The notes: generated by a model from the sequence alone, not told the origin. A stretch of 63,194 nt of DNA from Candidatus Pacearchaeota archaeon (GCA_018304175.1 JAGVWT010000001.1:1-63194); one strand, 5' to 3'. Shown: positions 37,648 to 58,481, counted from the first letter of the stretch. Translations and numbers: made by a program.

Positions 37648-38655
37648 ATGGAGTTTATAACATTACTTCCAATTATAGTAAGTTTTTTTGTAACTTTTTT
37701 CTTTATACCTCTTTGGATTAAAAAGGCGAGGGCAAGAGGTTTTTTATGGAAAGATATGAATAAATACGAAAGCAAAGAAAATGTTGCGGCTTCTGGAGGA
37801 ATCGTTGTAGTTTTATCGTTTGTCTTGGGAATTTTAATTTACATTGGAGTAAAATCTTTCTTAACAGAATCACAAGATTTCACAATAATAAGTATGTTTG
37901 CATTGTTGACTGTGATTCTTATTCTAACAATCATTGGAGTTATTGATGATTTATGGGGTTGGACTACAGGAGGCATGTCTAAAAAATGGAGATTAATCTT
38001 GGCTTTGTTTGCCTCAATACCAATAATTGTGATTAATGTTGGAGAATCAACAATGAATCTTCCTTTTTTTGGGGTTGTTCACTTTGGAATTTTTTATCCT
38101 TTGTTCCTTATTCCCTTAGGAATTGTTGGAGCAACTACAACATATAATTTTCTTGCCGGATTTAATGGATTGGAAACAAGCCAGGGAATTTTAATTTTAA
38201 CCTTCTTATCTTTTGTTGCATACATAACAGGTTCTGCATGGCTGTCTGTCGTCGGTATGACTATGGTTGCCTCGCTGATTGCATTTTATATTTTTAATAA
38301 ATATCCCGCAAAAGTTTTTCCTGGAGATTCTTTAACATGGAGTGTTGGGGCATTAATTGCAATAATGGCAATTCTTGGAAACTTCGAAAAAATCGCTACA
38401 TTTGTTTTCATACCTTATTTCATAGAAACGGCTTTAAAATCCAGGGGAAAATTGGAAAAACAATCATTCGGAAAGCCGAATAAAGACAATAGTCTTGAAT
38501 TAAAGTATAATAAAATTTACGGGCTTACACACTTAAGCATTTATATATTAAAAAAAATAAAACCTAGCAAAAAAGTTTATGAAAAGGATGTTGTTTATTT
38601 AATAAACGTTTTTCAGTTGTTAATTATCCTAATTGCATTTGTGATATTTTTGTGA
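37648..38655 (+). CDS. aglH: UDP-GlcNAc:polyprenyl-phosphate GlcNAc-1-P transferase (AglH/GPT, MraY-like)
   Basis: IGVIDDL, NFLAGFNGLE, YPAKVFPGDSLT; about 10 TM; adjacent to aglB. Confidence 0.85.
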   Translation: MEFITLLPIIVSFFVTFFFIPLWIKKARARGFLWKDMNKYESKENVAASGGIVVVLSFVLGILIYIGVKSFLTESQDFTIISMFALLTVILILTIIGVIDDLWGWTTGGMSKKWRLILALFASIPIIVINVGESTMNLPFFGVVHFGIFYPLFLIPLGIVGATTTYNFLAGFNGLETSQGILILTFLSFVAYITGSAWLSVVGMTMVASLIAFYIFNKYPAKVFPGDSLTWSVGALIAIMAILGNFEKIATFVFIPYFIETALKSRGKLEKQSFGKPNKDNSLELKYNKIYGLTHLSIYILKKIKPSKKVYEKDVVYLINVFQLLIILIAFVIFL

Positions 38656-38689: not shown

Positions 38690-41392
38690 ATGATGTCTGA
38701 TAATTTGATAAAATTCAAGTTTAATGAGAATTGGCAAAACAACAAATTGTGGATTTACATATCACTAGCATTACTTGTCTTAATAGTAATTCTTGGCACT
38801 TATATAAGGACAACAAACATTGATGATTTGAAGAGTTCTATCACTGGAGAATATGTATTGGGTCCTGACTTGGATCCTTTCTTGTTCCTTAGAGTTGCTG
38901 GAGAAATAGTTGAACATGGTGAACCATTGAAACCAGACTATATGAGATACTTAGGAATGGCTAATCCTTACTATAATTTCGTGCCTTTTGGTATTGCGTA
39001 CTTGTATAAATTTCTAAATTTGTTTTCTGGCGATATAACATTAGAATATGTTGCAATAATCTTTCCTGTGATTTTTTTTGGATTAAGTATTGTTTCATTT
39101 TTCTTTTTAGTCAGAGAAATATTTCACAATAGAGAAGAATTTCAGAAAGATGCTATTGCTGTTATCGCTTCGGGGCTTTATTCAGTCATGCCTGTTTTGC
39201 AACATAGGACGACCGCGGGAATACCTGAATTAGAGAGTGCAGGATTATTTTTCTTTTGGCTTTCGTTTTTCCTTTTTTTGAAAGCCTGGAATAACAAAAA
39301 AAAGATTTTAAAGATTGATAAAAGTTATTTGTTTGGTTTGGGAGCTGGAATTTCAACCTGTCTTATGGTATTCACATGGGGAGGATTCAGATTTATTTTT
39401 ATATCCATAGCTTTTGCAGTTTTTGTAGCATTTTTCTTCGGAAAAGTTGGTAATAAAGAAACTGTGATTTATTCTTTGTGGTTTATACCTTCGGTTTTTT
39501 TCTTTTCATATATTTATGGTGGGAGTTTTTTTGATTTGACTGGTCCAATAATACCAGTATTTGTTTTTCTAATGTTGATAATTAATGTTTTTATTGGCGA
39601 AAAGCTTGAAAAAAAAGCTAAAGAATTAACCAAAAGGAAATGGATGAGTAAAGAAGTAATTGTTTTTATTTTAACAATACTTTTGGGATTTATTTCTGCA
39701 TTGATACTAAACCCTGATTTTGCATTAGGGATTTTTGCAGATTTGGGAAAACAATTGTTAAATCCTCTTGGAACTAGTAGAATAGGATCAACAGTAGCCG
39801 AAAATAAAGCGCTTTACCTAACAGACCTATTTTCTAGTTTAGGTAAGAGTTTTTTTTGGATGTTCTTTTTTGGAGCAATATTATTATTTTATGAAGCAGT
39901 AAAACATTTAGAAAAAAAGGAAAAAGCAATCTTAACAGGTTCATTTATCTTATTTATTACAGGATTTATTTTTTCAAAGTATTCTTCAGACAGTGTTTTC
40001 AATGGAGAAAATTTCATAAGTCAAACAATTTATTTCGGCTCAATTATTGTTTTAGTCGGGTCTTTTGTATATGTCTATTTAAAAAATCTAGACGCCAAAG
40101 AGAAACTTGATAAATTCAGAGAAATAGAATTTTCATATTTTTTTGTGTTCGCTTTGTTGATATTAATGATGGTCGCTTCGAGAAGCATAATAAGGTTAAT
40201 TTTGATATCTTCTCCTGTTTTTATAATTCCGGCGGCATTTTTACCAGTTATATTGTTGAATTATAATCTAAAAACAAAAGACGAATTCTGGAAAATTTGT
40301 TTTTTGTTAATATTATTGGTTAGTTTGTTTTACACAGGGATTACCTTTAATAATTATGAAGAGGCAACTGCTCTTTCGGTTAAGTCTACTATTCCAAATC
40401 AGTATTATACCCAGTGGGAAAAAGCAATGTTTTGGGTTCGCGAAAATACTCCTGAAAAATCAATATTTGTCCACTGGTGGGATTATGGATATTGGGTACA
40501 AACAATAGGTCAAAGACCGACGGTAACTGATGGCGGACATTCGATAAAACACTGGGACCATTTAACAGGAAGGTATTTACTCACAACTCCAAATCCTGAA
40601 ACAGCTTTGAGTTTGATGAAAACATACAATGTTTCATATCTACTTATTGATTCTACAGATTTAGGAAAATATCCTGCATACAGCTCAATAGGAAGTGATG
40701 AAAACGGAAGGGATAGATTGTCAAATATACCATTAATCCCTCTTTTCGATACCCAAGAAACAGATACAGGTACTTTAAAAGTTTATCAAGGCGGGACATC
40801 TGTCGATGAAGATATGTTTTATGAATATTCTGGTAAGGAGATATTTCTTCCGGAAGGAAAAGCGATAATGGCAGGAGTTTTAATTGAGATGACTGATGAT
40901 GAATCTAACGAGTTTAGTGAATTTTCGCAGCCAATAGGAGCATTTGTGTATAACAACCAGCAATTCAATATTCCACTAAGATATATGTATTTCAATGAGG
41001 AATTAGTTGACTTTGGCGGAGGACTTGATGCAACTGTTATAATAATGCCGACGATAAATCAAAATGGTGAACAAATTAACATAGATGGACTTGGAATGGT
41101 TATATATTTGTCTCAAAAAGTTTCGAAAAGTTTGTTTGCACAGCTTTATTTGCTTGATGATAGCTTTGAGAACTATGATACTGTAAAATTAGTCCACTCA
41201 GAAGAAGACCCATTAATTGTCAGCTTAAATTCTCAGGGGGCTAACATAAAGGACTTCGTATATTTTGGAGGATTTAGGGGACCCATAAAAATCTGGGAAG
41301 TTTCTTATCCAGATAATATTTTAGAGAAAGAAGAATTCTTAAAAAAGGCTGGGAATTACGCTGAGTTGGATGATTTTGTTTTTGTAAAATAG
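38690..41392 (+). CDS. aglB: oligosaccharyltransferase AglB (STT3)
   Basis: DLDP, STVAE (TIXE-like), WWDYG, DLGK (DK motif); about 13 TM plus a soluble C-terminal domain. Confidence 0.96.
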   Translation: MMSDNLIKFKFNENWQNNKLWIYISLALLVLIVILGTYIRTTNIDDLKSSITGEYVLGPDLDPFLFLRVAGEIVEHGEPLKPDYMRYLGMANPYYNFVPFGIAYLYKFLNLFSGDITLEYVAIIFPVIFFGLSIVSFFFLVREIFHNREEFQKDAIAVIASGLYSVMPVLQHRTTAGIPELESAGLFFFWLSFFLFLKAWNNKKKILKIDKSYLFGLGAGISTCLMVFTWGGFRFIFISIAFAVFVAFFFGKVGNKETVIYSLWFIPSVFFFSYIYGGSFFDLTGPIIPVFVFLMLIINVFIGEKLEKKAKELTKRKWMSKEVIVFILTILLGFISALILNPDFALGIFADLGKQLLNPLGTSRIGSTVAENKALYLTDLFSSLGKSFFWMFFFGAILLFYEAVKHLEKKEKAILTGSFILFITGFIFSKYSSDSVFNGENFISQTIYFGSIIVLVGSFVYVYLKNLDAKEKLDKFREIEFSYFFVFALLILMMVASRSIIRLILISSPVFIIPAAFLPVILLNYNLKTKDEFWKICFLLILLVSLFYTGITFNNYEEATALSVKSTIPNQYYTQWEKAMFWVRENTPEKSIFVHWWDYGYWVQTIGQRPTVTDGGHSIKHWDHLTGRYLLTTPNPETALSLMKTYNVSYLLIDSTDLGKYPAYSSIGSDENGRDRLSNIPLIPLFDTQETDTGTLKVYQGGTSVDEDMFYEYSGKEIFLPEGKAIMAGVLIEMTDDESNEFSEFSQPIGAFVYNNQQFNIPLRYMYFNEELVDFGGGLDATVIIMPTINQNGEQINIDGLGMVIYLSQKVSKSLFAQLYLLDDSFENYDTVKLVHSEEDPLIVSLNSQGANIKDFVYFGGFRGPIKIWEVSYPDNILEKEEFLKKAGNYAELDDFVFVK

Positions 41393-41446: not shown

Positions 41447-42505
41447 ATGAAAAATATGAGGATAGCGTTTGTCAATGATACTTTTATCGAGGGAAATGGA
41501 GTAAGTACTGTAATTTATGAGCTAGCAAGAAGATTGGGAAAAATTCATGATGTTTTTATTATCGCTCCTGAAATTGACATGCCGGAAGATAATTTTAAGA
41601 TAATAAAAATCAAAGGTAGAAAATTGTTGTCTAGTAATTCTTTAAATGACTCAATACAATATTTTCCAAATTTAATCAGGTTAAGAAAAGAAATATTGAA
41701 TTTGCATAAGAAATACAATTTTGATATTTTTAATGTTCATCACTCATCATTAAATCCCGCATTTTTTAGTTTGCCTTCAGTTATTACATGGCATGGATCT
41801 CCATTTTCCAAAAATATTTTTAGGGTTTATCTTAATAAAGCAATACTTTTAACCCTTAGAAAAAAACCAGTTTCTCTTGTAATTTCTGATTATATGAAGG
41901 AAAACCTATCAAAAATAATTCATAGAGACAAAATAAAAGTTGTTTACAATGGGGTTAGTGAAGAATTCAATCCAAAAAAGAAAGATAAGAAATTTATGCT
42001 TTTTGTAGGGCGTCTTGAAAATCACAAATCAGTGCATGAGTTAATCAGGTTAAGTAAGGAAATTAATTTTCCAATATACATAGTCGGTTCTGGGCCATTA
42101 GAACCTAAATTAAAGAATTATGCAAAACTAATTAACGCAGATAAAGTATCTTTTCTTGGGAAAATATCTAAAAAAGAATTAATTAAAAATTATCAAGAAT
42201 GCAGTTTTTTCATTTCTGCCTCAAAATGGGAGGGTTTTGGGCTTATTTTTATAGAGGCTGCTGCTTGCAGAAAACCTTCAATAGGGTATAAAAGAGGATC
42301 AATTTCTGAAGTTATTTTAAATGAAAAAACAGGTTTTCTGGTTGATAACTATGACAACCTAAAAGAAAAAGCAGTTTTATTGATAAACAATAAAAAATTA
42401 AGAGAAAAAATGGGAAAAGAAGCATTAAGATATTCAAAAAAATTTAGCTGGGAAAATTCCGCCAAAGAATATGAAAAAATATTCAAGAGTATTTCTTCTG
42501 CTTGA
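41447..42505 (+). CDS. GT4 family glycosyltransferase
   Basis: FVGRLENHKS; SKWEGFGLIFIEAAAC (EX7E). Confidence 0.92.
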   Translation: MKNMRIAFVNDTFIEGNGVSTVIYELARRLGKIHDVFIIAPEIDMPEDNFKIIKIKGRKLLSSNSLNDSIQYFPNLIRLRKEILNLHKKYNFDIFNVHHSSLNPAFFSLPSVITWHGSPFSKNIFRVYLNKAILLTLRKKPVSLVISDYMKENLSKIIHRDKIKVVYNGVSEEFNPKKKDKKFMLFVGRLENHKSVHELIRLSKEINFPIYIVGSGPLEPKLKNYAKLINADKVSFLGKISKKELIKNYQECSFFISASKWEGFGLIFIEAAACRKPSIGYKRGSISEVILNEKTGFLVDNYDNLKEKAVLLINNKKLREKMGKEALRYSKKFSWENSAKEYEKIFKSISSA

Positions 42506-43328
42506 TTTTCTCTTTGTGAATTAAATAGCCAAGATAGATGTTATAAATAAAAGTTTTCGCTACGACATTAAAACCTTTATTTCCTTCTTTCCAAGCTCCT
42601 TCGTAAAACATTTGTTTGAAAAAAACCAATAAGGCATATATTGTATTGTTTATAACAGGCAACTTTGTTCTGATTTTTATTTTCAATGGAAAGTTTTTTT
42701 TATCATACTGAAATGTTGGGAATTCTTTAAAATCTTTTAGAAGATTTTTTGCCTGACTTGGAGCATATCTTTTCATAACCTTTTCTCTAAAACCCTTAAA
42801 ACCAACATCCTGATTTTCTTTTGGTTTGTGAATTATTATGTAATTTGTTTTTTTGACCTTTCCTGAAGAAACATTTAGTGTCATATCAAACCCTGGAAAA
42901 CCAAGGTAAGAAATTTTTGATTTTCTCGCCAATGCAACTTTTCTCGGCCAAGTTTTTGTAACAGATTTTTTTCCATCCCAAAGAGGATGAATAAAGCTAT
43001 ATGCATCTATTTCATTATTTTGAATTAATTTTCTTATGTTTTTTCTTAGTTCATCAGAGAGGGATTCGTCGTCGTCTAATTTTAGAACCCATTCATACTT
43101 TGCTTTTCGCAAACCAAAGGCAAATGGAAATACACTACGACCTTTTCTTTTAGGAAGAGAATAAACCTTTTTTGTGAACTTTCTTGCGATTTTCAGTGTA
43201 TTATCGCTACAGGGGCCATCATGAACAACAATAATTTCATCAACAATTCCTTTAATACTTTCAAAAGTTTCTTTTATGGTTTTCTCGCCGTGATAAACAG
43301 GGATTACTGCAGATATTCTGTTTTGCAT
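42483..43328 (-). CDS. GT2 family glycosyltransferase
   Basis: ISAVIPVYHGE; IIVVHDG..DNT; WVLKLDDDE. Confidence 0.9.
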   Translation of the reverse strand: MQNRISAVIPVYHGEKTIKETFESIKGIVDEIIVVHDGPCSDNTLKIARKFTKKVYSLPKRKGRSVFPFAFGLRKAKYEWVLKLDDDESLSDELRKNIRKLIQNNEIDAYSFIHPLWDGKKSVTKTWPRKVALARKSKISYLGFPGFDMTLNVSSGKVKKTNYIIIHKPKENQDVGFKGFREKVMKRYAPSQAKNLLKDFKEFPTFQYDKKNFPLKIKIRTKLPVINNTIYALLVFFKQMFYEGAWKEGNKGFNVVAKTFIYNIYLGYLIHKEKIKQKKYS

Positions 43329-43400: not shown

Positions 43401-44816
43401 TTAGCAACTACCCGGAACATCTTGGACATATAATGCCTGTGCTGTTTTACTTTTCTCTTTCCAGCGAGGATCAAATCTGTAGGCATTTTTTTCTCCAGCA
43501 ACTCCGCGAATATATTCTGCCCATGATTGGATTTGCTCTGGTAGAGGATTTATATGAAGATAGTGTGAAGCCCATTCTCCAGGTCTTCCAATAGTTTGAT
43601 ACCATTCAAAGGTTTTTACCTTTCTAAATCTGAAATCAAATTTTTTTGAATATCCGCTTTCATCTGAATAATCCCAAATAGGAGACCCAGGAAGTGGGAC
43701 AAAAACATGAACACCGACGGAATCAACAGGCGATTCTCTAATAAATCTTGCCATTGTTTCTATCGAATCGTCTGTCTCTCCAGGTAAACCAACAATCATT
43801 TGTGCTCTTACACGCATGCCTACTGTCTTTGCAGCAATTATAGCTTCCATATTTTCTTCATATGTTGTCTCTTTTTCTATTCTTCTTAAGATTCTATCAT
43901 CAGCATGTTCAATTCCATAAGTAATCTGCTTACAACCAGCATCATACATTCTTTTGTAAAGATTAAGCTTTCTGTTAAATGTTGGAGGCACATCTACTCT
44001 TCCAAGACAATGCCAATCGAAAGAAAACTCTTTTTGCAATTCATCAAATTTATTACATAATCTATTAACTTGTTTTTCTGAAACAATGAATATATCATCA
44101 AACATGTAAAATCTATTGCAGTTATATTTTTCTCCGAGATGCCTCATTTCATTAAAAACATCAGAATCTTCCCTATAACGAACACGAAAATTTGAAAGAG
44201 TCATTTGAGCACAAAAACCACATTTGAATGGACAACCACGAGAAGTAATCAGATGTCCTTCTTTTATTTCATCTCTTGAATCTCCCCAAACATTTGCATT
44301 AGTTCCAACACGATGATATTGATCAATGTCAATAAGTTCCCTCGCAGGCCAAGGAAGTTTTTGCATTTCGGCTTCAGGAATCATTGGTGCATCAATAATA
44401 CCTCTTTTAAGTCCATTCAACTGTCCGCGGGTAATTTTCAGCATTTCTACTTCACCATCGCCCTTAACAACATAATCTGCTCCGAGATTTAAAGTGTGTT
44501 CTGGCATGGCTGAAGCATGATAACCTCCCATGACAATTAAAGCATTTGGCTGCCTTTCTCTTATTCGCTGTGCAACTTTTTCTGCAAGATGGGCTTGAGG
44601 CGTAGTAAGACTGATTCCATAAATATCTGCGTATTTCAAATTATCATCCCATTTATCTTCTGTCAAACCACACAAATCAGATACTGTAGTTTCTATGTTG
44701 TTTTGTTGCAGATATGAAGCAATACCTAAAACTCCTAAATTAGGCAAGTCCTTATCATCAATAAGCCACGGACTAGGAAGAGTTATCATATTCACTGATT
44801 TGTCTAAACTTCTCAT
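43401..44816 (-). CDS. cobalamin-binding radical SAM protein (class B methyltransferase-like)
   Basis: PNLGVLGIASYL, IVMGGYHAS, VVKGDGE B12 domain; TSRGCPFKCGFC (CxxxCxxC); IVGLPGET. Confidence 0.92.
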   Translation of the reverse strand: MRSLDKSVNMITLPSPWLIDDKDLPNLGVLGIASYLQQNNIETTVSDLCGLTEDKWDDNLKYADIYGISLTTPQAHLAEKVAQRIRERQPNALIVMGGYHASAMPEHTLNLGADYVVKGDGEVEMLKITRGQLNGLKRGIIDAPMIPEAEMQKLPWPARELIDIDQYHRVGTNANVWGDSRDEIKEGHLITSRGCPFKCGFCAQMTLSNFRVRYREDSDVFNEMRHLGEKYNCNRFYMFDDIFIVSEKQVNRLCNKFDELQKEFSFDWHCLGRVDVPPTFNRKLNLYKRMYDAGCKQITYGIEHADDRILRRIEKETTYEENMEAIIAAKTVGMRVRAQMIVGLPGETDDSIETMARFIRESPVDSVGVHVFVPLPGSPIWDYSDESGYSKKFDFRFRKVKTFEWYQTIGRPGEWASHYLHINPLPEQIQSWAEYIRGVAGEKNAYRFDPRWKEKSKTAQALYVQDVPGSC

Positions 44817-44855: not shown

Positions 44856-45866
44856 TCAGTCAGTTTTAACAGATAACTCTTTCATTATGTTTATATATCC
44901 TTTAACTACATTATTAATGTCTGTTTTTTTCTTAACTTTTTTCATGGTTTTTAAGGCATCTTTCCAAACTTTTTTTCCAAATGTTTTCTTAGCATAATCA
45001 AGTGTTTTTATAACTGATTGAAAATCTGTATTTGTAAGATATGGATAATTTTCCCCGAGAAGCTCAACTACTGAAGAATCACGAGAAGTTATAATATTGG
45101 CTCCTATCGCAGACGCCGTAGCAACTTTTGTCGATGGCTTATATAAAAACTCGTAAGAGCCTTCTTTTCTCATGGAATAAAGGCAATTAAATTTCTCCTT
45201 GACTTTTAATTGTTCTAAAAAATTTTGGACTAAAATTAATTCCGGTATCTTATCAGCAAAAAGAACTTTATTTGGGGCGCCACCAAAATATACTAAGGTA
45301 AATTTTTTATTTTGTTTTTTTGCTTTCAATTTGCCAAACTTTGGATCCCAATGATGGTACATAACAAACGATTTTGTTCTTTGAAAAAGATAATGTTTAA
45401 AATCATTTTGCATTCTTTTGTTAGGGAATATTATTCCATGACATATCTTTCCTTGATTTTCTAACAAGTTTGGTCTTGCATCATCAAGAACATTATAGAC
45501 AAGGATACAATTTTTTTTAATCGCCCTTATAACATCACTAAAAGGAAAATATTTGACAAAAATCACCATTGAGTTATCTATGTCTTCTGGGAGTTTTCTT
45601 ACATATACTTCCGAATTTATCCCTCTTTTTTTTAAAGCATCACATGGCTGATGGCCATTCATGGTTATCGTTCCTTTCAAATCCTTTACCAAAAATATAA
45701 CTTTTTTTATTTTTCTATTGTAACCTATATTTTGATAATCTTTATTTTTTGAAATCCATCTCTTTATTAGCAAATAATCAATAAAATTTTCCAAACCAAG
45801 TTTTTTGTTATTTTTGAAGAATAATAAAAGGGCCAAGATATTCTTTACTTTTTTTCTATTGTCCAT
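44856..45866 (-). CDS. divergent GT-B-like protein
   Basis: IIFPNK; LVYFGG; KPSTKVATASAIGANIITS resembles the GT-B C-terminal KPxxK..AxG motif. Confidence 0.55.
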   Translation of the reverse strand: MDNRKKVKNILALLLFFKNNKKLGLENFIDYLLIKRWISKNKDYQNIGYNRKIKKVIFLVKDLKGTITMNGHQPCDALKKRGINSEVYVRKLPEDIDNSMVIFVKYFPFSDVIRAIKKNCILVYNVLDDARPNLLENQGKICHGIIFPNKRMQNDFKHYLFQRTKSFVMYHHWDPKFGKLKAKKQNKKFTLVYFGGAPNKVLFADKIPELILVQNFLEQLKVKEKFNCLYSMRKEGSYEFLYKPSTKVATASAIGANIITSRDSSVVELLGENYPYLTNTDFQSVIKTLDYAKKTFGKKVWKDALKTMKKVKKKTDINNVVKGYINIMKELSVKTD

Positions 45867-45867: not shown

Positions 45868-46692
45868 TTATTTCAGTAAAAACCTTTGAATTTTGCTGTC
45901 TTTCCATATATCAACTATTTTTTCCTTTAAACTAAGTTTTATAGGTTTTGGTGCTTTTTTTGGATTTAAACTCATTATTATATGAAAAGATTTTTCACTT
46001 TCTTCTGGGCCCCTAATATACTGTCCATTAAAGTAAGGATAAAAATTTTCTAAATTATACATCCCATGTTCTGCAAACTTTTTAACCCACCATTTTTTTG
46101 GTTTTTGAGTTCTATGAAATTCAATATCACTAACCATATCGGAATAATTAGCCACACTTGCTATGAACAGGCCTTCTTCTAAGAGATGTTTTTTTATGTT
46201 TTCAATTAGGCTGCCTATTTGATTTTCTTCTAAATGTTCCAAAACCTCCCATGCCGTTATAACATGGAATTTGATAATTTGTTTGGGTTTTTTTTTAGTT
46301 ATGGAAAAATCTTTTGTAATATCGCAGGTAAATAATGAATCTGGAATTATTGGCCATTCAGCCCTGTGCATTTTTTTTGAGTAGTCACTACCTTCTAAAC
46401 CAACTGCAAAACAACCATCATTGATACATGCCCTTACAAAACCCCCTCCTGCACACCCTAAATCTAGAATTTTTAAATTTCCAGTGATTTGTCCTGAATA
46501 TTTAGGATAAAATAATCTGTAAAGTTTAAAATTGAACAACCAATTTGTAGAATTATCATGTTTTGAACCTTTTGGATAAAGATAGTCATTCGAATCGTAG
46601 GCTATCATTCGTTCGCATTTTAGAATTATATCTTTAGGAAAAATTTCTCCTGTTTTTTCTTTATTTTGCATTTTAAACATTGTCTGTTGCAA
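45868..46692 (-). CDS. class I SAM-dependent methyltransferase
   Basis: ILDLGCAGGG; VGLEGS; CDIT; VITAWEVLEHL. Confidence 0.9.
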   Translation of the reverse strand: MQQTMFKMQNKEKTGEIFPKDIILKCERMIAYDSNDYLYPKGSKHDNSTNWLFNFKLYRLFYPKYSGQITGNLKILDLGCAGGGFVRACINDGCFAVGLEGSDYSKKMHRAEWPIIPDSLFTCDITKDFSITKKKPKQIIKFHVITAWEVLEHLEENQIGSLIENIKKHLLEEGLFIASVANYSDMVSDIEFHRTQKPKKWWVKKFAEHGMYNLENFYPYFNGQYIRGPEESEKSFHIIMSLNPKKAPKPIKLSLKEKIVDIWKDSKIQRFLLK

Positions 46693-49600
46693 ATTTTATT
46701 TGATTTAATAGCCACCTCGACCCATTAACTCCTTTATATTGTAATCCTTTTGCTAAAGTGATGCTAACTTGCTCTTTATTATTAATGTCATACTCATTTA
46801 CTGAAAAGCTTCCCACTCCTTTTAATAAGGAATTGTCTACTGAATCTAAATCACCCATGTCTCCTATTTTAACTATTTCATCAACCAATAAATCGTTAGC
46901 GTTTGCGAAATGTGTTAAAGCAAATTCCTTATTAATTTCTTTTTTAGATATTACAATAGAACCTGAAGTTTGTGCAGAATTACTTTTATTGACTGCTAGA
47001 GGTATGTTCATTATCCTGAACATAGAATTTATTTTGTTAACGTATCCATTTTGAATATTTGGGTTTTTTGGTAGAATGTGTAGTTTATAATCTGTTACAA
47101 TATAGTCATCTTCAAGCTTCAAGACATTTTTCCTGAGTATTTTTAATGCAGTTTCTAAAACATATTGCGGCATTTTTTCATCATACATTTTTTTACTAAC
47201 TCCATAATCTAACCTGTAACAATATGAAGCATTTTCTGGATAAATATAAAATTTTGATTTGGAAGATATTTTAAGATTCTTATGAGAAATAATTTTGTGA
47301 ATAAGTTTTTCAGTCAAAGAATTGTTCTGCCTGACAGTCATAATACCCACAGGAATGTTATTATTCGATAACTTCACAAGAAGTTCAACAATATCATTCG
47401 GAACTTCATTATCTTCGTTTGTTATGGTTTCATCTACATCTATAGATAACCCTTTGTAAACTTTCTTTAGATATTCATCTAATCTTGATAAATGTTGTCT
47501 TATATTATACTCCTCAAAACTTAAGTTTAATACACTCTCTTTTGAATTTTGTATTTCATCATTAAGTTCTTTCATATATTGTTCAACCATCTCAACTTCT
47601 TCTTGTGTATTGAATCCTGCACATTCTTTCGGATCTGCACTGGCAATACCAACAATTTCTTTTTCTAGACTTGTCAACTTTGGAATCAATTTTAAAAAAT
47701 TAAGCTCGGAAATAGTTCCTTTTTCTATTCCAGAATCATTTACTAATTGTTTAAGTGCTTCAAGAACTTCTTTTGATTTAAATATGAATATACTAGCATC
47801 ATGTTCTCCAAAATCCCTTTTTTGTCCTGGATTTTCTTTGGTTATAAAAACATCAATTATTTTCCCATCATTATCCCTTATTAACCCTGCATAAGGATTT
47901 TTTTCCCAGCATGTTGGGATTGTTATAACTGAACTTTCTAAAGCCTGATGTATAGCACAGGTTAAGTTTATTGTTTCTGATCTTATATTTGTAATATCAC
48001 CCCAAGACAAAAAGATATCTCCATCAAAATCGGAGAACTCTTTTTTTAGAACATCAAAAAAACTCATAGCAGTTCCCCTAAGATCTTTTGTTATGATTAC
48101 TTTGGCATTGTAACTGGGATAATTTTCAGACCAGCCCTCAAGCTTTTTTATATCATTTTCATTGACGACAACAATTGGTTTTTCATCAATTTTGTAGTAT
48201 TTTTCTAATAAATAAGCTAAATTCGCTTTACCATTGATTGGATAAATTATTTTAGGTATATCTGATTTAAGTCGAGTTCCCTTACCAGCACCTAAAATAA
48301 TAACTTTTATCGGTCTCTTCGGTTTAAACTTGTCTACTCCACTAATACCCAATATCTCATCAATTAATCTTTTTATTCTAGACTCTTTTTCCTTATACAA
48401 AAAAGGGTTATTTAATAACTGCCTTAGTTGTTCTCTCTTATTCTCAATTTTGTTTATTTTTTCTTTTTTGATTAATTTTCCTTTATTAACTCTATAACCA
48501 ATGTCATCTATCATTTTAAGAGAATGAATAATCTGCGCTAGAAGCTTATGTTGGTGTTTCATATGGTATTGTGAATCTTCTTCAACACTTACCTCAATTA
48601 ACTCAACACCACATTGAGAAAGATACTTTTTATCTATAGGCAATCTATTAGCATTTATTACTCCATCGGTTCTATAACCATGAGTATTTATTATTATATA
48701 ATCTATTTCTGTTTTTTGACCATTATTTGTTTCATGATTAATATATTTTTCAAGTTCAACTAAATTTTCTCCCAAAGTATGAAAACCTCTTTCTCTTATT
48801 AAATTAGCCACAAATATTTTCAATGAATTAGAGTTATTCAGTGCCTCTGAAATTCCCTTAGTAACCAACGTTGGAGTCAAACTAGAATGGAATGTTGTTG
48901 GAGGAAATATTATTAATTCTGATTGCTTAATTGAATCAATCGCTTCTTCTGTCGCTTCTGGATAAACTGCAAAATTTGATTTTATATAATTAATTTTATC
49001 ATTTATCGAAGGTAATAAGTTAAATTGTCTTATATCTGCATCACCTAATGGCTTTTTTACTAAAAATATTTCAGATATCTCTTCATTAAGATGATCAAAT
49101 ACAACTTCTGCTTCGCAGTTCAATAGATTTCCTTTTTCAGTCACTGCAATTAACCATAATGGTTCTTGATTATTCAGAAATATTTTTCCGGATAGGCCAA
49201 AAAACTCAATTAGCTTATTATTTGTAAAATGATAATCCTTATTATAATGAAAATGAGCTCCAACATAAATCATATTCCTTATTCCATAATCTCGTAAGTC
49301 ATAAACCTGATTATATTTTGTTTCCCAAGTAGAGATTGCCCTTTCAAATTCTGTGAGAAAAACACGTAATTGTGTCTTGATTGATACATCTGTCTTATTA
49401 AGAAAATCATTTATCAAACCTGATTTTTCATGATCTGTTATTGCTAACCTCAAATCACTTCTCAATTGTTCAGAGGTTTTTGTTATGGGCAGACGATATT
49501 CTAAAAAGCTTCTCAGTTCTTGTTTAGAATCCCCCATAAGAGCCACTATATTTTTAGCAATATCTGATGGACCTAAAAGATTCAAGTTTCTTCTTATATG

Positions 49601-50035
49601 TCCTGTGCTTTTTCCGTCATCATAAGCATTAACTAATAAAGTTATGTCCGCCCCCATTTCAAGCAGGCCTTTTGTCAATCTATTTGAGCCAGTTCCTCCG
49701 GAAAACATCGTCAATTTTCCATTGAAAAAAAACCCTTCATTAAATACAGCATCATAAATCTTTGTGATATCTCTATCTTCCACGCTGTAACCTTTTACAT
49801 CCCTATATTTTGATTCTAAAATAAATATTATGTCATCTATGTCGGATAGTATGGAATTATTTTTAATAAAATCGACTAAATCTTCTTCATTTTTTGTCAA
49901 AATATCTACTAGTCTTTTATTGTTTAAAGATGGGAACACTAAATTATTAGCCAACTCTTTTATTATTGAATTGATTTTGTCAATAGGATCAAAATTTTTT
50001 GTTACTCCATTTAATTGACTCATCAAGCCATCCAT
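46673..50035 (-). CDS. three-domain fusion: YvcK/CofD-like + GlmU-type nucleotidyltransferase + HAD phosphatase
   Basis: FSGGTGS / VNAYDDGKSTG / PSD (YvcK/CofD); ILGAGKGTRLKSDIPKIIYPINGK and WGD (NTP transferase); SIDVDETI, IMTVR, KIGDMGDLDSVD (HAD motifs). Confidence 0.85.
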   Translation of the reverse strand: MDGLMSQLNGVTKNFDPIDKINSIIKELANNLVFPSLNNKRLVDILTKNEEDLVDFIKNNSILSDIDDIIFILESKYRDVKGYSVEDRDITKIYDAVFNEGFFFNGKLTMFSGGTGSNRLTKGLLEMGADITLLVNAYDDGKSTGHIRRNLNLLGPSDIAKNIVALMGDSKQELRSFLEYRLPITKTSEQLRSDLRLAITDHEKSGLINDFLNKTDVSIKTQLRVFLTEFERAISTWETKYNQVYDLRDYGIRNMIYVGAHFHYNKDYHFTNNKLIEFFGLSGKIFLNNQEPLWLIAVTEKGNLLNCEAEVVFDHLNEEISEIFLVKKPLGDADIRQFNLLPSINDKINYIKSNFAVYPEATEEAIDSIKQSELIIFPPTTFHSSLTPTLVTKGISEALNNSNSLKIFVANLIRERGFHTLGENLVELEKYINHETNNGQKTEIDYIIINTHGYRTDGVINANRLPIDKKYLSQCGVELIEVSVEEDSQYHMKHQHKLLAQIIHSLKMIDDIGYRVNKGKLIKKEKINKIENKREQLRQLLNNPFLYKEKESRIKRLIDEILGISGVDKFKPKRPIKVIILGAGKGTRLKSDIPKIIYPINGKANLAYLLEKYYKIDEKPIVVVNENDIKKLEGWSENYPSYNAKVIITKDLRGTAMSFFDVLKKEFSDFDGDIFLSWGDITNIRSETINLTCAIHQALESSVITIPTCWEKNPYAGLIRDNDGKIIDVFITKENPGQKRDFGEHDASIFIFKSKEVLEALKQLVNDSGIEKGTISELNFLKLIPKLTSLEKEIVGIASADPKECAGFNTQEEVEMVEQYMKELNDEIQNSKESVLNLSFEEYNIRQHLSRLDEYLKKVYKGLSIDVDETITNEDNEVPNDIVELLVKLSNNNIPVGIMTVRQNNSLTEKLIHKIISHKNLKISSKSKFYIYPENASYCYRLDYGVSKKMYDEKMPQYVLETALKILRKNVLKLEDDYIVTDYKLHILPKNPNIQNGYVNKINSMFRIMNIPLAVNKSNSAQTSGSIVISKKEINKEFALTHFANANDLLVDEIVKIGDMGDLDSVDNSLLKGVGSFSVNEYDINNKEQVSITLAKGLQYKGVNGSRWLLNQIKFATDNV

Positions 50036-51283: not shown

Positions 51284-52528
51284 ATGTTTGAAATAAAAAA
51301 TTGTCGTATATGTGGATCTGAAAATCTCTCTTTTATAATCTCTCTTGGAAATCAATATGTTACTGGTTTTATTAAATCTGAAAAAGAACAGATGAAAATT
51401 CCAAGAGTTCCTCTTGAACTTGTTCTATGTGGGGAATGTAAAGTTTTACAACTAAAACATAACGCACCTCCGGAATCAATGTGGGACGAGCAGTATTGGT
51501 ACAAATCAGGGATAAGTACAACTATCAAAAAAGATTTGAAGGATATTGTTGAGAAATCACTTAAATTAATTGACTTAAACGAAAATGATATTGCTGTAGA
51601 TATTGGATGTAATGACGGAACCTTGCTTGGATTTTATACCAAAGGAAAGCTCATCGGATTTGAACCTTCAAAAAATGTAGCTAAAGAAGCCAAAGAAAAA
51701 GGATTTAATGTAATAAACAATTTTTTCAATGCAAAAAATTTCAAAGAAGAATTTGTAGATAAAAAGGCGAAGATAATTACTGCAATTTCAATGTTCTATG
51801 ACTTGGAAAATCCTAATGAATTTCTCAGAGACATTAATGAAATTTTAGATAATGATGGATTATTTGTAATTCAGCAAAATTATCTTGCAACAATGTTAGA
51901 ATATAACGCATTTGATAATATATGTCATGAACATAGAGAGTATTATTCACTATCTTCATTGAAAAATCTTTTAGAAAAACATAATCTAGAAATATTTGAT
52001 GCTGAACTAAATGATATAAATGGGGGAAGTATAAGAACGTACATAAAAAAAATTGGGAATGAAAAAATCAATCCATTTAGTGAATCTAAATCAAGAATAA
52101 ATGGGATAATTGAAAGAGAGCAAAAAATTGGACTGAATACAATAAATCCATATCTTGAATTTGCTTTAAGAATTGACAAAATAAGAGAAGATTCGATGAA
52201 TTTTCTGGAAGAAGAAAAATCAAATGGTAAAAAAATTTGGATTTATGGCGCATCAACAAGAGGGAATGTTATACTTCAATATTTTGGACTAAATTCCAAT
52301 ATCATTGATTTTATCGCCGATAAAAATCAAGATAAATGGGGAAAGAAAACAATAGGAAGTTTAATTCCTATAACTTCTCCAGAAGAAATGAGGAAAACAA
52401 ATCCAGATTATCTTTTGGTTAATACATGGCATTTCTTCGAAGAAATAAAGGAGCAGGAAAAAGAATATTTTGAAAAAGGAGGGATTTTAATAACAGCATT
52501 GCCTAAATTTAGGATAGTAAAAAAATAG
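51284..52528 (+). CDS. NDP-sugar C-methyltransferase (Zn-binding, TylC3/NovU-like)
   Basis: CRICGS...C..C Zn site; DIGCNDG; ICHEH; YGASTRGN. Confidence 0.88.
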   Translation: MFEIKNCRICGSENLSFIISLGNQYVTGFIKSEKEQMKIPRVPLELVLCGECKVLQLKHNAPPESMWDEQYWYKSGISTTIKKDLKDIVEKSLKLIDLNENDIAVDIGCNDGTLLGFYTKGKLIGFEPSKNVAKEAKEKGFNVINNFFNAKNFKEEFVDKKAKIITAISMFYDLENPNEFLRDINEILDNDGLFVIQQNYLATMLEYNAFDNICHEHREYYSLSSLKNLLEKHNLEIFDAELNDINGGSIRTYIKKIGNEKINPFSESKSRINGIIEREQKIGLNTINPYLEFALRIDKIREDSMNFLEEEKSNGKKIWIYGASTRGNVILQYFGLNSNIIDFIADKNQDKWGKKTIGSLIPITSPEEMRKTNPDYLLVNTWHFFEEIKEQEKEYFEKGGILITALPKFRIVKK

Positions 52529-52531
52529 TAA

Positions 52532-53401
52532 TTATTTGTCTTTATTATACTGGTTTCTTAAAATTTCAAGCCCTTCCTCAAAAGAATGTGTTTTTAATCC
52601 CAGATTTTCTATTTTCGATATATCCAAAGTTGTATTAAATGGGATTTTCATTTCAATTTCTGATTTTTCATTTGTTTGTATTGATGAAATTTTTGACTCA
52701 TCCCTAACTACTTTCTCTAAACTTTTTAAAAAATCAATCATTTTTACTCTGGTTGGTCCAGCAACATGAAATAAACCCCTTTGATTTTTCTTCAAGATAA
52801 ATAAAATAGCGCTTACAACATCATCAGCCAAGACAGGTTGCCTCATTTGATCAGGAGCTTTTAATTTTACTTCATTTCCAGATAATATTGAACCTCCAAA
52901 AACACCATTTTTTTCACCTTTTCCATTGTAACCATACATTGCATCTACCCTTATTACGATTGAATTTTTATAACTTAAAATCTCCTTCTCAGCCAACACT
53001 TTTGTTTTTCCATATTCATTCTCAGGATTAGGTAAGTCAGATTCGTTGTAATTTCCTTTCTTTCCGTCGAAGATATATGTTGAAGAAAAAAATACCATAA
53101 CTGAATTGATTGTTTTACATGCTTCTAAAATATTTTTTGCTGTTTCGTAATTCAATCTCCTACATAAATCTGGATTTTTTTCGCATGCAACAGAACTTGT
53201 TAATGCTATAGTATCTATAACAATATCTGGCTTATTATCATTTAGAAATTTTTTTATATCACCAGGAATTGTGGCGTCCAAATGCATTAATCCTTCCTTT
53301 TTGTTGTCAGAATAAGTTCCAATTACCTCGTGATTTTTTGATAGAAAGTTAAACAGCTTTGTTCCTAAAAATCCTGAGGCTCCAATTACCACTATTTTCA
53401 T
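52532..53401 (-). CDS. RmlD-like NDP-4-keto-sugar reductase (extended SDR)
   Basis: GASGFLG; SSTYIFDG; YGKTK (YxxxK). Confidence 0.88.
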   Translation of the reverse strand: MKIVVIGASGFLGTKLFNFLSKNHEVIGTYSDNKKEGLMHLDATIPGDIKKFLNDNKPDIVIDTIALTSSVACEKNPDLCRRLNYETAKNILEACKTINSVMVFFSSTYIFDGKKGNYNESDLPNPENEYGKTKVLAEKEILSYKNSIVIRVDAMYGYNGKGEKNGVFGGSILSGNEVKLKAPDQMRQPVLADDVVSAILFILKKNQRGLFHVAGPTRVKMIDFLKSLEKVVRDESKISSIQTNEKSEIEMKIPFNTTLDISKIENLGLKTHSFEEGLEILRNQYNKDK

Positions 53402-54501
53402 TTTAAAAGAGAAAGGTAAATATCTTTATATCTTTTGGTCACTGCCCTCCAACTATTCTCTTTCATGTACCTTTCGCATTCTTTTACCATTTTTTTGTAA
53501 TTTTTTGATTTTATACATTCGTGAACTAGTCTAGAATAATTACTTTCATTTTCTGCTGTCTTTATACAACCATAATTCTTTTCTATATCTGTAAAAAAAG
53601 GAATACTACTTGAGATAACTGGTTTTTTTGTAGCAATTGCATGTGTAAATATCCCACTACCAATTCCTCCTCTATAAGGCAACATAACGAAATCAGCTGC
53701 TGAGAAGTAAAGCCACCATTTCGGCATTTTATCATTCAGTGACGATATGTCGAATCTAACATATTCCGACAAATTCTGATGCTTAACTTCCCTCATTAAA
53801 TTTTCTATTATTCCTGACAATCTCTTTTTTTTCTCATCATTTACTGGATCTGGATTTGAAGCAATCAATAGTGTTTTCCCTATTTTATCCGCTTGCCCCA
53901 CAATTATATCTGTGCCTTTTCCGTATTGGAGATTTCCTATGATCAAGTATACATTGCTTTTTATTTTAAGAGATTTTTTTGCTTTGTTTTTCTCTGTTAT
54001 TTTTACACCTTCGATTATCCCTTGCGGTAAAACAACTATCTTTCTTTTTGGAACATTATACCAATTTACCAAAGTTGGTACAAAAAAGTTCGAATGTACA
54101 AAAATTAAATCAGATCCGTAATTTATCACTCGGTTTTGAAAAATATAAAGCAATTTTCTAAATATTGTTTTTATAAAGTTACTGTGAAACTTTTCATTCA
54201 ATGGTAAAATATTGTGCATAGTAGTAATCACTTTGTAATTTCTTGGTAAGATGAAATATAAATAAATTAAAAAATAAGGCAGCCCATAATAGCCTAATAG
54301 ATTATATTCGTGCTGAATATGGACAATATCATAACTCTTAAATTTTGGAAATAATTTAAAAAATGAGATTGGTAATCCCCTTTCATAAGTTACAAAGTCC
54401 ATATCAATTTTATTTATTTTTGCTGCTTTAACAAGTTCTTCAGAATAACCAGATATTGCCTTTTCTGATTTTCTTGAGGGGGTGACCATTGCTACTTTCA
54501 T
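53398..54501 (-). CDS. GT4-like glycosyltransferase
   Basis: DIVHIQHEY; TTMHN; GNLQYGKG; ADFVMLPY; KPVISS. Confidence 0.85.
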   Translation of the reverse strand: MKVAMVTPSRKSEKAISGYSEELVKAAKINKIDMDFVTYERGLPISFFKLFPKFKSYDIVHIQHEYNLLGYYGLPYFLIYLYFILPRNYKVITTMHNILPLNEKFHSNFIKTIFRKLLYIFQNRVINYGSDLIFVHSNFFVPTLVNWYNVPKRKIVVLPQGIIEGVKITEKNKAKKSLKIKSNVYLIIGNLQYGKGTDIIVGQADKIGKTLLIASNPDPVNDEKKKRLSGIIENLMREVKHQNLSEYVRFDISSLNDKMPKWWLYFSAADFVMLPYRGGIGSGIFTHAIATKKPVISSSIPFFTDIEKNYGCIKTAENESNYSRLVHECIKSKNYKKMVKECERYMKENSWRAVTKRYKDIYLSLLK

Positions 54502-54502
54502 C

Positions 54503-55537
54503 TTAATAAGAATCTATAATTTCTTTTATTTTCTCCAATGCTTCTTCTGAAATCTCTTTTTTCTTAGAATTATTTATTTTACTTCGCCAATAATCAATAG
54601 TTTTCCTTAAACCTTCTTCAGGAGACATTGTTTGTCGCCAACCAAGAATTCTTTGCGCTTTTGATGCATCCAAAACTAAATATGGCTGATCTGATTTTAA
54701 TGGGCGAGATGGATATCCTGGGGGATATTCTCCAAAATGTATTTTTTCTAAAGGAAAGTTTATTTGTTCTGCAATTTTTAATGTCCACTCTTTGTTAGTG
54801 TATCCTTTCCCTCCGGCAATGTTAAATACCTGTCCTTTCGCATTTGGAGATTTCATGGCAAGCAAGTAAGAATTAACATGATCGTCAACATACATATAAT
54901 CCCTCACAGAGTCTGGCGCTCCTATGTAAATATCGTTTCCTTTGAGCATTTCTGTTATCAGATATTCAGTAAAAAAACTATCATCATATTTTCTTCCAAA
55001 AGTATTTGAGTTTCTTAAAAGAACTCCGTTAAAATCGTAGATATAAAAAAGCATTCTCATGTACATATCCATTGAAGCTTTTGCAACTGCATAAGGACTT
55101 GAAGGCTCTAAACGTAAATCTTCAGTTGACGGCGACATTGAATTTTGGATTCCATAAACTTCTGCTGTTGATGCCACAATAAGCCTTACTTTTTCAACAC
55201 CATATAAATCCAATATAGCTTCCACAATATTTACTGTCCCTAAAAATGTGTTTTTTTGATAATCAAAAGGGTGTTCAAAACTTAATCTTACGGGAGACAA
55301 TGCTGCTAAGTGAAAAACTACTTCTGGCCCAACTTTTTTCAATGAGTTTCTTACAGAAAAATAATCTGTCGTGTCGCATGTTATTAATTTTATTTTATCT
55401 TTTATGTCATCTAAACATTTTAGGTCTCTTCCAACAACATGCCTAACAAATCCATACACTTCCTGTCCTTCTTCAACAAGTTTATGAGCTAATTCCGCAC
55501 CTATAAATCCAGTAATTCCTGTGATTAAAACCCTCAT
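54503..55537 (-). CDS. NDP-sugar 4,6-dehydratase (GDP-mannose/dTDP-glucose type)
   Basis: TGITGFIG; HLAA.S.V..SF; ASTAEVYG; SPYAVAK; RDYMYVDD. Confidence 0.9.
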   Translation of the reverse strand: MRVLITGITGFIGAELAHKLVEEGQEVYGFVRHVVGRDLKCLDDIKDKIKLITCDTTDYFSVRNSLKKVGPEVVFHLAALSPVRLSFEHPFDYQKNTFLGTVNIVEAILDLYGVEKVRLIVASTAEVYGIQNSMSPSTEDLRLEPSSPYAVAKASMDMYMRMLFYIYDFNGVLLRNSNTFGRKYDDSFFTEYLITEMLKGNDIYIGAPDSVRDYMYVDDHVNSYLLAMKSPNAKGQVFNIAGGKGYTNKEWTLKIAEQINFPLEKIHFGEYPPGYPSRPLKSDQPYLVLDASKAQRILGWRQTMSPEEGLRKTIDYWRSKINNSKKKEISEEALEKIKEIIDSY

Positions 55538-57671: not shown

Positions 57672-58481
57672 ATGATTTTAAATTCTGCACTAATACTTGC
57701 CGGAGGGAAAGGAACTAGGTTTGAAGAAAGAACAGAAGATTTACCTAAACCACTGATTCCTGTAAGAGGAAAGCCAATACTCGAAAGAATAATTGAATGG
57801 CTTAAAAGCAATGGAGTTACTAATATAATTATAGGTGTAGCATATAAAAAAGAAATGATTATGAATTATTTTGGAGATGGAAGTGATTTTGGAGTTAGGA
57901 TTAATTATGTGGAACACAGTCAAGAAGGTGGGACAGAAGATGCATTTAAAACAGACATTGAACAGGTATTTGAAAAAGGACTAATTAACGAAGAGAATTT
58001 TTATGCAATGAACGGCGACCAAATAACTGATTTGCAACTAGAAGGGCTAACTAATGCGCATTTGAGAAATAGCCCCATAGTAACTTTGGTAAGTGTTAAA
58101 TTAAAAACTAATTTTGGAGTTATTAACTTAAACGACAGGAGCCAAGTAATAGAATTTAAAGAAAAAGGAGAAGTTCATGATAAAATGATTAATTCTGGGA
58201 TTTATGTGTTCAATAAAAAGATAAAAGATTACCTTGAAGGAGAGAATATAGAGGAAAATGCTTTCAGAAAATTAATTAAGGAAGGAAAAATATATTCTTT
58301 TTACTACGACGGTGTTTGGCTTACGGTAAATGATAAAAATGAGTTGAAAAAAGCTGAGGAATTTGTAAAAGATTTTGATGTATTAAACATAAAAAATAGT
58401 AAAAATTTAGAATTTGGGGGTTCAAAAGAAAAAGAAGTTATAGAAAAAATAAGAAATGTTTTAAATGAATTAGTAAAATGA
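57672..58481 (+). CDS. sugar-1-phosphate nucleotidyltransferase
   Basis: LILAGGKGTRF...LPKPLIPVRGKPIL; NGD; INSGIY. Confidence 0.92.
   Translation: MILNSALILAGGKGTRFEERTEDLPKPLIPVRGKPILERIIEWLKSNGVTNIIIGVAYKKEMIMNYFGDGSDFGVRINYVEHSQEGGTEDAFKTDIEQVFEKGLINEENFYAMNGDQITDLQLEGLTNAHLRNSPIVTLVSVKLKTNFGVINLNDRSQVIEFKEKGEVHDKMINSGIYVFNKKIKDYLEGENIEENAFRKLIKEGKIYSFYYDGVWLTVNDKNELKKAEEFVKDFDVLNIKNSKNLEFGGSKEKEVIEKIRNVLNELVK

Follow-up and report, generated by a model that had tools for sequence, protein, structure and literature searches.

A triple-fusion gene in an archaeal glycan cluster

Examination of a 63,194-nucleotide stretch of DNA from a Candidatus Pacearchaeota archaeon (GCA_018304175.1, JAGVWT010000001.1:1-63194; hereafter the window) revealed, on the minus strand at 46673..50035, a single open reading frame (ORF) with an ATG start and no internal stop, coding for a protein of 1120 amino acids (P0001). 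Four parts can be distinguished in this protein: an N-terminal helical domain, a domain of the YvcK/CofD fold, a GlmU-type nucleotidyltransferase (NTase) and a HAD-IIB domain (Table 1). The gene represents a rare archaeal version, in fused form, of a widespread cassette of CofD-like, NTase, HAD and family 2 glycosyltransferase (GT2) genes, and no characterised example of the fusion or of the cassette was found in the literature searched.

An earlier interpretation made from the DNA alone (hereafter the sequence-only reading) had described a three-domain fusion with recognisable motifs for each domain, and the ORF, the profile searches and Foldseek bore this description out. An AlphaFold2 (AF2) model computed from eight orthologues reached a mean predicted local distance difference test (pLDDT) of 82.5 and a predicted template modelling score of 0.74, and its domains matched YvcK, GlmU and HAD-IIB structures in Foldseek. 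Conservation was read from an alignment of eight sequences, orthologues at 33-56% identity, in which the catalytic motifs of all three domains are invariant except for variants in HAD motif II and at T115.

The folded helical domain at the N-terminus (~residues 15-100) had been left out of the sequence-only reading. No family match was obtained for it, and it occurs in 8 of the 14 triple fusions in our architecture census. A coiled linker had also been described, which was right in part. Residues 508-572 fold as a conserved, confidently modelled beta-hairpin followed by two helices, a module that travels with the NTase and also precedes the same NTase in the giant proteins P0135 and P0151; a true flexible linker does exist, at residues 827-843.

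Table 1. Features of the fusion gene and of its surroundings, with positions in the window.
Feature	Position	Strand	Evidence
Whole fusion gene P0001 (CofD-like / NTase / HAD-IIB, 1120 aa)	46673..50035	-	ORF, profiles, AF2 model, Foldseek
N-terminal helical domain, ~residues 15-100	49736..49993	-	alignment, model pLDDT ~87-91, census
YvcK/CofD-fold domain, residues 105-505	48521..49723	-	profiles, alignment, Foldseek
Conserved beta-hairpin and helical hairpin module before the NTase, residues 508-572	48320..48514	-	alignment, census, model
GlmU-N-type sugar-1-phosphate nucleotidyltransferase domain, residues 574-826	47558..48316	-	profiles, alignment, Foldseek
Flexible, poorly conserved linker, residues 827-843	47507..47557	-	pLDDT <50; length varies in alignment
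HAD-IIB domain, residues 858-1115	46691..47464	-	profile, alignment, Foldseek
S-adenosylmethionine (SAM)-dependent methyltransferase, 274 aa	45868..46692	-	profile; orthologue adjoins fusion in L006
GT-B-fold glycosyltransferase, 336 aa, no Pfam match	44856..45866	-	predicted fold; orthologue after methyltransferase in L006
B12-binding radical SAM enzyme, 471 aa, related to MJ_1487, HpnJ, PhpK	43401..44816	-	profiles; beside fusion in L006
GT2 (GT-A) glycosyltransferase, 281 aa, last gene of co-directional run	42483..43328	-	profiles; orthologue in L006
AglH/MraY-family phosphoglycosyl transferase	37648-38655	+	context
AglB/STT3 oligosaccharyltransferase	38690-41392	+	context

Recurrent coupling of the three enzyme types

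The CofD-like, NTase and HAD domains are joined in more than one way. Permuted CofD-HAD(IIB)-NTase proteins (P0036 and P0028), a HAD(IA)-NTase-CofD-GT2 fusion (P0024) and an NTase-CofD-GT2 fusion (P0025) were found, along with NTase-CofD, CofD-HAD and very many CofD-GT2 proteins. When 152 CofD-like domains were placed in a maximum-likelihood tree, the 14 triple fusions came out together in a single clade (SH-aLRT 85-91) and the permuted and HAD-IA forms in others, so that the same three enzyme types must have been fused independently at least three times.

A census of gene neighbourhoods was made in 80 species genomes carrying the CofD-like clade, with partners counted on the same strand within 6 kb. 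A partner NTase was present in 71/80 genomes, a HAD in 67/80 (62 of type IA and 5 of type IIB) and a GT2 in 61/80, and 54 of the 80 carried NTase, HAD-IA and GT2 together. The protein of the window belongs to this clade, characterised by a long CofD-like domain (~400 aa) with a dedicated NTase and HAD; in it, HAD-IIB replaces the usual HAD-IA. The fused GT2 enzymes are of the polyprenyl-phosphate sugar synthase type (AglJ, ArnC, PpgS). One genome of the window's own family has adjacent [HAD-IA-NTase] and [CofD-GT2] genes, flanked by a GT-C (PMT_2) gene, a Wzx flippase gene and an HldE-like gene, and Prochlorococcus has separate CofD-like, HAD, GT2 and NTase genes inside a polysaccharide locus.

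Since the fusions arose repeatedly and in different orders, and since the same enzymes are neighbours in most genomes with the clade, the assignment of the CofD-like, NTase and HAD activities to one pathway is supported. To that extent the activate-transfer-dephosphorylate module proposed in the sequence-only reading is partly supported. Its order of steps and a phosphotransfer by the CofD-like domain are conjectural: it may equally be that the HAD comes first and feeds the NTase, either as a phosphomutase of PMM type or by taking a phosphate off a bisphosphate, and the CofD-like domain, being of YvcK/GlmR type, may be a sensor or an accessory uridyltransferase.

Distribution of the triple fusion

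The identical 1120-aa protein was called on 11 contigs (NCBI, JGI, Logan, ENA), and a word-indexed search returned seven full-length orthologues (33-56% identity). An exhaustive profile search covered 1.84 billion cluster representatives, and a census of the domains in its matches left 14 proteins with the CofD-NTase-HAD(IIB) architecture, mostly 50%-identity cluster representatives. The architecture is rare but not unique, and is already in public databases as hypothetical proteins. Among species-representative genomes the full fusion occurs in three Candidatus Omnitrophota genomes, in WOR-1 and in one further bacterium, and one closer homologue carries the name Woesearchaeota. The distribution is patchy, since 0 of 300 other genomes of the window's own order carry the triple fusion.

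Several homologues stand in unusual sequence settings. In Candidatus Omnitrophota the whole CofD-NTase-HAD module lies inside giant ORFs, of 2905 aa in one locus (L023 1819-10536) and of at least 6427 aa in another (L074 6-19288), where the entire 19-kb locus is one frame; the 7695-aa representative P0151, from the same phylum, carries the linker and the NTase. A Pfam scan of the 2866-aa P0015, which is related to these giant ORFs, detected no other domains. Orthologue P0008 (L001 10001-23015) has an MFS transporter gene on one side and a giant ORF, longer than 3748 aa, on the other; the setting is bacterial, with ribosomal protein S16, KhpA and IspH. In orthologue P0005 (L003 10001-13597), an extra hydrophobic segment of ~35 residues at the N-terminus may serve to anchor the protein in a membrane, and after it comes more sequence that the other orthologues lack.

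The YvcK/CofD-fold domain

The Pfam family CofD (PF01933) matches residues 109-481 of the fusion protein with an E-value of 1.6e-31. The best NCBIfam model is that of YvcK (TIGR01826, E 1.7e-30), at 106.5 bits against a subfamily cut-off of 196, and the model of CofD from coenzyme F420 synthesis (TIGR01819, E 9e-5) gives 21.6 bits against an equivalog cut-off of 257.45. Foldseek searches of the PDB retrieved the YvcK structures 2ppv, 2hzb and 2o2z (E 2e-16 to 1e-13, TMt 0.80-0.84), relative to which the ~400-aa domain contains a helical insertion of ~100 residues. CofE (PF01996) was absent from the 544-kb genome, as judged by a search that was positive in three F420-using archaea taken as controls. 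The identity as an F420 CofD was rejected on the failed equivalog score and on this lack of CofE.

Conservation is concentrated in a few motifs. G113, G114 and G116 are invariant, with T115 kept in 7/8 sequences, as are the stretches N136-G145 (NAYDDGKSTG), L154-I159 (LGPSDI) and R414-G417 (RERG) and the single residues N411 and H494. D139/D140 and D158 align with the DD...PGD motif of the YvcK structures. The DD pair is required for the uridyltransferase activity of GlmR (PMC10128056), and in FbiA the catalytic metal is held by two aspartates, D45 and D57 (PMC7253369), to which the D139/D140/D158 region would be equivalent, as we infer from the motifs rather than from a computed alignment. 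On the strength of these aspartates, in the alignment and in both characterised relatives, the CofD-like domain looks catalytic. In the CofD reaction, a hydroxyl attacks the beta-phosphate of a nucleoside diphosphate (NDP)-activated donor made by a partner NTase (PMC7253369).

YvcK binds uridine diphosphate (UDP)-glucose (UDP-Glc) and UDP-N-acetylglucosamine (UDP-GlcNAc) and contacts its nucleotide through T13, N217, Y264 and R300, in the numbering of B. halodurans (PMC5482804). The first two of these contacts are kept, as T115 (7/8 orthologues) and N411 (8/8). UDP-GlcNAc is the product of GlmR, and a block in a GT2/GtcA/YfhO pathway of sugar decoration suppresses the loss of GlmR (PMC10128056).

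The nucleotidyltransferase domain

The GlmU model TIGR01173 matches residues 576-825 (E 1.2e-23) with 83.7 bits, below the cut-off of 366.85, and its alignment places residues 577-825 on profile positions 2-240. PF12804 and PF00483 are above their cut-offs on this domain, and Foldseek returned a GlmU match at E 2e-14. Invariant residues comprise G584, R588, K595, W678-G-D680, H745-D746, E804 and G807-F-N809, with H745-D746 lying in a key motif at G743-E-H-D746. Because the GlmU pyrophosphorylase motifs are intact, synthesis of an NDP-sugar from a nucleoside triphosphate (NTP) and a sugar-1-phosphate is a safe inference for this domain.

The resemblance to the N-terminal pyrophosphorylase of GlmU extends to the fold and to the motifs G-x-G-K-G-T-R, E-H-(K)-D and E...G-x-N; K595 corresponds to K25, and W-G-D to Y103-G-D105. 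In contrast to GlmU, the fusion protein has a HAD domain instead of the left-handed beta-helix acetyltransferase, and its NTase is preceded by the hairpin/helix module. A Pfam scan gave no match to the hexapeptide repeats of the C-terminal left-handed beta-helix, and a true GlmU identity was rejected for lack of the acetyltransferase domain.

The HAD domain, mutase or phosphatase

The HAD-IIB model TIGR01484 matches residues 860-1072 (E 6.9e-7, 29.5 bits against a cut-off of 41.8), and Pfam Hydrolase_3 matches 4/8 orthologues. All four HAD motifs and a C2 cap are present: D866-x-D868 (motif I), T900, replaced by Ser in two orthologues, with R902 invariant (motif II), K1036 (motif III) and D1059...D1067 with the i+8 (D-x7-D) spacing of phosphomannomutase (PMM) (motif IV). 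The best HAD structure in Foldseek was the PMM-like alpha-phosphoglucomutase 4bnd (E 4.4e-9), whose GDMTQPGGND segment aligns gap-free to motif IV, followed by the Bacteroides HAD 4dwo (1.4e-8).

The HAD domain may be an upstream PMM-like mutase feeding the NTase, because 4bnd is its best match, because its motif IV has the PMM-type spacing, because the HAD-IA domains of the variant fusions score highest in NCBIfam against the beta-phosphoglucomutase (beta-PGM) family, and because classical alpha-D-phosphohexomutase (PF02878), present in 14/14 control genomes, was not detected in this ~88%-complete genome. Against a mutase stand the HAD profile scores, all of which are below their cut-offs. 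The domain shares four motifs and the C2-cap fold with PMM, 4bnd and Cof-type sugar phosphatases, and its motif IV spacing is that of PMM; it differs in that the Pfam scan gave no PF03332 match, in its low TIGR01484 score and in matching phosphatases as well as mutases.

In a genome without the classical phosphohexomutase, hexose-1-phosphate could be supplied by a HAD-type mutase or by uptake from a host. The window itself encodes at least two sugar-1-phosphate nucleotidyltransferases, one of them besides the NTase domain of the fusion.

Locus and genome setting

The genome is of DPANN size (544 kb on 17 contigs, ~88% complete, ~30% G+C). Since both an AglH/MraY-family transferase and AglB/STT3 are present, the locus is, on its gene content, an archaeal N-glycosylation cluster. 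It also holds several GT1 and GT2 enzymes, a UDP-glucose dehydrogenase and, at the window edge, a flippase-like gene, so the location of the fusion inside a glycan cluster, as first described, holds. The proposed operon is likewise borne out by co-directional and tightly spaced genes running from the fusion to the GT2 gene: the methyltransferase gene shares its first 20 nt with the end of the fusion (46673-46692), and the next spacings are 1, 39 and 72 nt.

The GT-B-like nature guessed for the 336-aa product of this operon is seen in its predicted model (pLDDT 86), which has a GT-B fold nearest to GtfC (4w6q), the SenB selenosugar synthase (8jjn) and GlgM. No Pfam or NCBIfam match was obtained for this protein, and its family is tiny, with 15 matches in 5.8 billion proteins. 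It stands beside the triple fusion at two loci, the window and L006, and a further family member (P0163) may share a third contig with the homologue P0003, both being listed on a 5,476-bp contig.

Locus L006, which carries an orthologue 43% identical to P0001, keeps the methyltransferase, GT-B, radical SAM and GT2 genes in a rearranged order. The set is absent from bacterial orthologue loci and, being common only to the window and to archaeal L006, cannot be claimed as the core of the system. Glycosyltransferases are found beside the orthologues in L007 and L004. After the bacterial orthologue P0009 in L004 (1391-14540) come genes for a GT2 of the Glyco_transf_21 type, for a polyketide synthase of 2486 aa and for a fatty-acid desaturase, gene content that suggests a glycolipid rather than a protein-glycan context.

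Genes of an NDP-6-deoxy, C-methyl sugar branch lie at 51284, 52532, 54503 and 57672; the regions 51284-55537 and 57672-58481 encode a sugar C-methyltransferase (a Methyltransf_13/14 pair), an RmlD-like reductase, a 4,6-dehydratase and an Arch_glmU/RmlA-like NTase. Judging from these genes, a C-methylated deoxysugar is probably part of the N-glycan. For the B12 radical SAM enzyme, scores below cut-off were obtained with the MJ_1487 family, with the hopanoid enzyme HpnJ and with P-methyltransferases of the PhpK type. Phosphonate or P-methylation chemistry was set aside, the PhpK score being far below cut-off and typical of cross-matching among B12-dependent radical SAM enzymes; a scan of the window genes at 35.9-61.2 kb gave no phosphoenolpyruvate mutase. 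Elsewhere in the window, at 3603-4754 (+), a 383-aa processive GT2 nearest to the NodC chitooligosaccharide synthase (TIGR04242, 240 bits, cut-off 550) is unexpected in an archaeal genome of ~0.55 Mb.

Proposed mechanism

Our best explanation, in which we have slightly less than even confidence, is that the fusion protein is a self-contained cytoplasmic module of three enzymes, the rare fused form of a widespread and uncharacterised glycan-modification cassette, in which the NTase makes an NDP-sugar, the HAD supplies or trims, and the CofD-like domain, by analogy with CofD, transfers a phospho-sugar to a glycan or lipid-linked acceptor with release of a nucleoside monophosphate (NMP).

To judge from its intact motifs, the GlmU-type NTase would condense an NTP and a sugar-1-phosphate into the NDP-sugar. 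The HAD-IIB domain would either supply the sugar-1-phosphate, through a PMM-like 6-to-1 mutase reaction or by taking the distal phosphate off a bisphosphate, or remove a leftover phosphate after transfer. By analogy with CofD/FbiA, the YvcK/CofD-fold domain would then bind the NDP-activated product with aspartate-bound Mg2+, and attack of an acceptor hydroxyl on the beta-phosphate would release NMP and leave the sugar (or another group) phosphodiester-linked to the glycan or lipid-linked sugar. In this archaeon the neighbouring GT2, GT-B and GT1 enzymes would assemble the acceptor, an N-glycan precursor linked to dolichol; the methyltransferase and the B12 radical SAM enzyme, co-transcribed with the fusion, would add methyl groups to it, and AglB would then attach it to protein.

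A more far-reaching proposal, which we regard as rather doubtful, is that the YvcK/CofD-fold domain represents an unrecognised class of soluble glycan phosphotransferase that forms, with its own HAD as a PMM-like mutase and its GlmU-type NTase, a complete phosphoglycosylation module (sugar-6-P to sugar-1-P to NDP-sugar to acceptor-O-P-sugar) that places a phosphodiester-linked, later methylated sugar on a DPANN N-glycan and that has moved between Woesearchaeota, Omnitrophota (as giant proteins) and WOR-1.

Known pairs of enzymes offer precedents. In each of LicC/LicD, TarI/TarL and IPCT/DIPPS a transferase, coupled to an NTase of its own, attaches a group through a phosphodiester and releases NMP; in the synthesis of di-myo-inositol phosphate a phosphatase completes the pathway. 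These systems resemble the proposed one in the order of NDP-X synthesis and phospho-X transfer. However, the LicD, TagF-like GT-B and CDP-alcohol transferase folds are unrelated to the CofD/YvcK fold, and none of the systems has an obligatory HAD and GT2.

In the CofC/CofD (FbiD/FbiA) pair, too, an NTase making an NDP-activated phospho-compound is joined by a transferase of the PF01933 fold, aspartate-containing N-terminal motifs that may be equivalent are conserved, and the chemistry proposed here is the same, with attack of the acceptor hydroxyl on the beta-phosphate and departure of NMP. The fusion differs by its NTase, of the GlmU (sugar-1-phosphate) rather than the CofC type, by the added HAD, by a context of glycan rather than deazaflavin synthesis and by the helical insertion in its ~400-aa domain. 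What would be new, by this analogy, is that the YvcK branch has carried the logic of CofC/CofD over to glycan synthesis and added a HAD to it.

Points against the proposal and alternative explanations

A number of observations weigh against this mechanism. The profile scores place the CofD-like domain nearer to YvcK/GlmR than to the F420 CofD, and the activities reported for YvcK/GlmR are UDP-sugar binding and uridyltransfer, not formation of a phosphodiester. The YvcK contact Y264 falls in a gap and R300 corresponds to the non-conserved K493, next to the invariant H494; of the GlmR triad D40, D41 and N198 (PMC10128056), the DD pair is invariant and the N198 position is occupied by an invariant threonine, T389. 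The HAD profile matches phosphatases (3niw, 4qjb) and mutases in the PDB about equally, and the HAD-IA variants seem to lack what we take to be the distal-phosphate arginine of beta-PGM. Between the operon GT2 and the cassette GT2 profile only the generic N-terminal part matches (30 bits), and its identity to the fused GT2 is 22%. The synteny with L006 may reflect shared ancestry and not functional coupling. Finally, a glycan acceptor is not universal, because the orthologues in L003, L005 and L024 stand in contexts without a glycosyltransferase.

Several of these points fit a different division of labour, in which the HAD (as a mutase) and the NTase merely supply NDP-sugar to the glycosyltransferases of the cluster, and the YvcK-like domain is a GlmR-like sensor or channel, or an accessory nucleotidyltransferase as reported for Listeria GlmR, so that no phosphodiester is made. 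YvcK/GlmR-type proteins are widespread and matter for envelope integrity and virulence in Firmicutes and mycobacteria, and their biochemical role is disputed. YvcK/GlmR/CuvA (UPF0052, TIGR01826) is the closest match to the CofD-like domain in sequence and in structure, shares with it the GGTG, DDG...PxD and N411 motifs and is tied to UDP-sugar metabolism and to sugar decoration driven by a polyprenyl-phosphate GT2 (PMC10128056), a genetic link mirrored by the frequent fusion of the clade to ArnC/AglJ-type GT2 enzymes. The binding of UDP-Glc and UDP-GlcNAc by YvcK (PMC5482804), the conservation of T115 and N411 and the lack of a classical phosphohexomutase in the genome also favour supply with sensing, which would in addition account for the orthologues outside glycan clusters.

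On the other side, a further NTase in a polypeptide that already has a dedicated one would be superfluous, and the very many invariant polar residues across 33%-identical orthologues suggest catalysis and not binding alone. The domain falls short of the YvcK subfamily cut-off and contains the ~100-residue insertion, neither the residues of YvcK that matter most for UDP-GlcNAc binding (Y265 and R301 in B. subtilis) nor N198 of GlmR have conserved counterparts, and the protein, unlike YvcK/GlmR, is archaeal and fused to its own NTase and HAD. No YvcJ- or WhiA-type neighbours were seen among the genes annotated at 35.9-61.2 kb of the window. We consider supply with sensing a credible but rather unlikely explanation.

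The orthologues in L003, L005 and L024, in which the three-domain unit stands alone, are compatible as well with a soluble phosphodiester made by the logic of di-myo-inositol phosphate: the NTase would produce NDP-X, the CofD-like domain would transfer phospho-X to a phosphorylated small molecule and the HAD-IIB would remove the remaining phosphate, giving a solute or a cofactor-like compound. CofD itself yields a small-molecule phosphodiester, relatives have NTases with weak matches to the IPCT domain of IPCT/DIPPS, and HAD-IIB enzymes typically end two-step solute syntheses (MPGP, SPP, T6PP). Yet the partners in the wider clade are GT2 enzymes of the polyprenyl-phosphate type, in loci for polysaccharides or N-glycans that also hold flippases and GT-C enzymes, and the window gene lies in the middle of an agl cluster with no solute-related genes nearby, which makes a solute pathway distinctly improbable.

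Read-through or mis-assembly joining three separate genes, a danger for the fusion already acknowledged in the sequence-only reading, was rejected as practically negligible in view of the same protein on 11 contigs from four sources, of the 14 divergent proteins that share the architecture, one of them on a 1.03-Mb contig (L024), and of the conserved, well-folded module between the CofD-like domain and the NTase.

Significance

The repeated fusion of this clade to a dedicated NTase, to a HAD and often to a lipid-carrier GT2 makes it a Rosetta stone for the use of NDP-sugars by the YvcK/CofD fold. Of its members the triple fusion is the most compact test object, and one soluble polypeptide could settle the role of this branch. 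The unfused cassette is present in cultured Sphingomonas (S. jatrophae), Novosphingobium (N. aquimarinum), Geomonas (G. limicola) and Prochlorococcus, where genetics are feasible. If the domain does form phosphodiesters, it would constitute a new enzyme class for glycan decoration, and phosphate-linked sugars would be predicted on the N-glycans of DPANN archaea.

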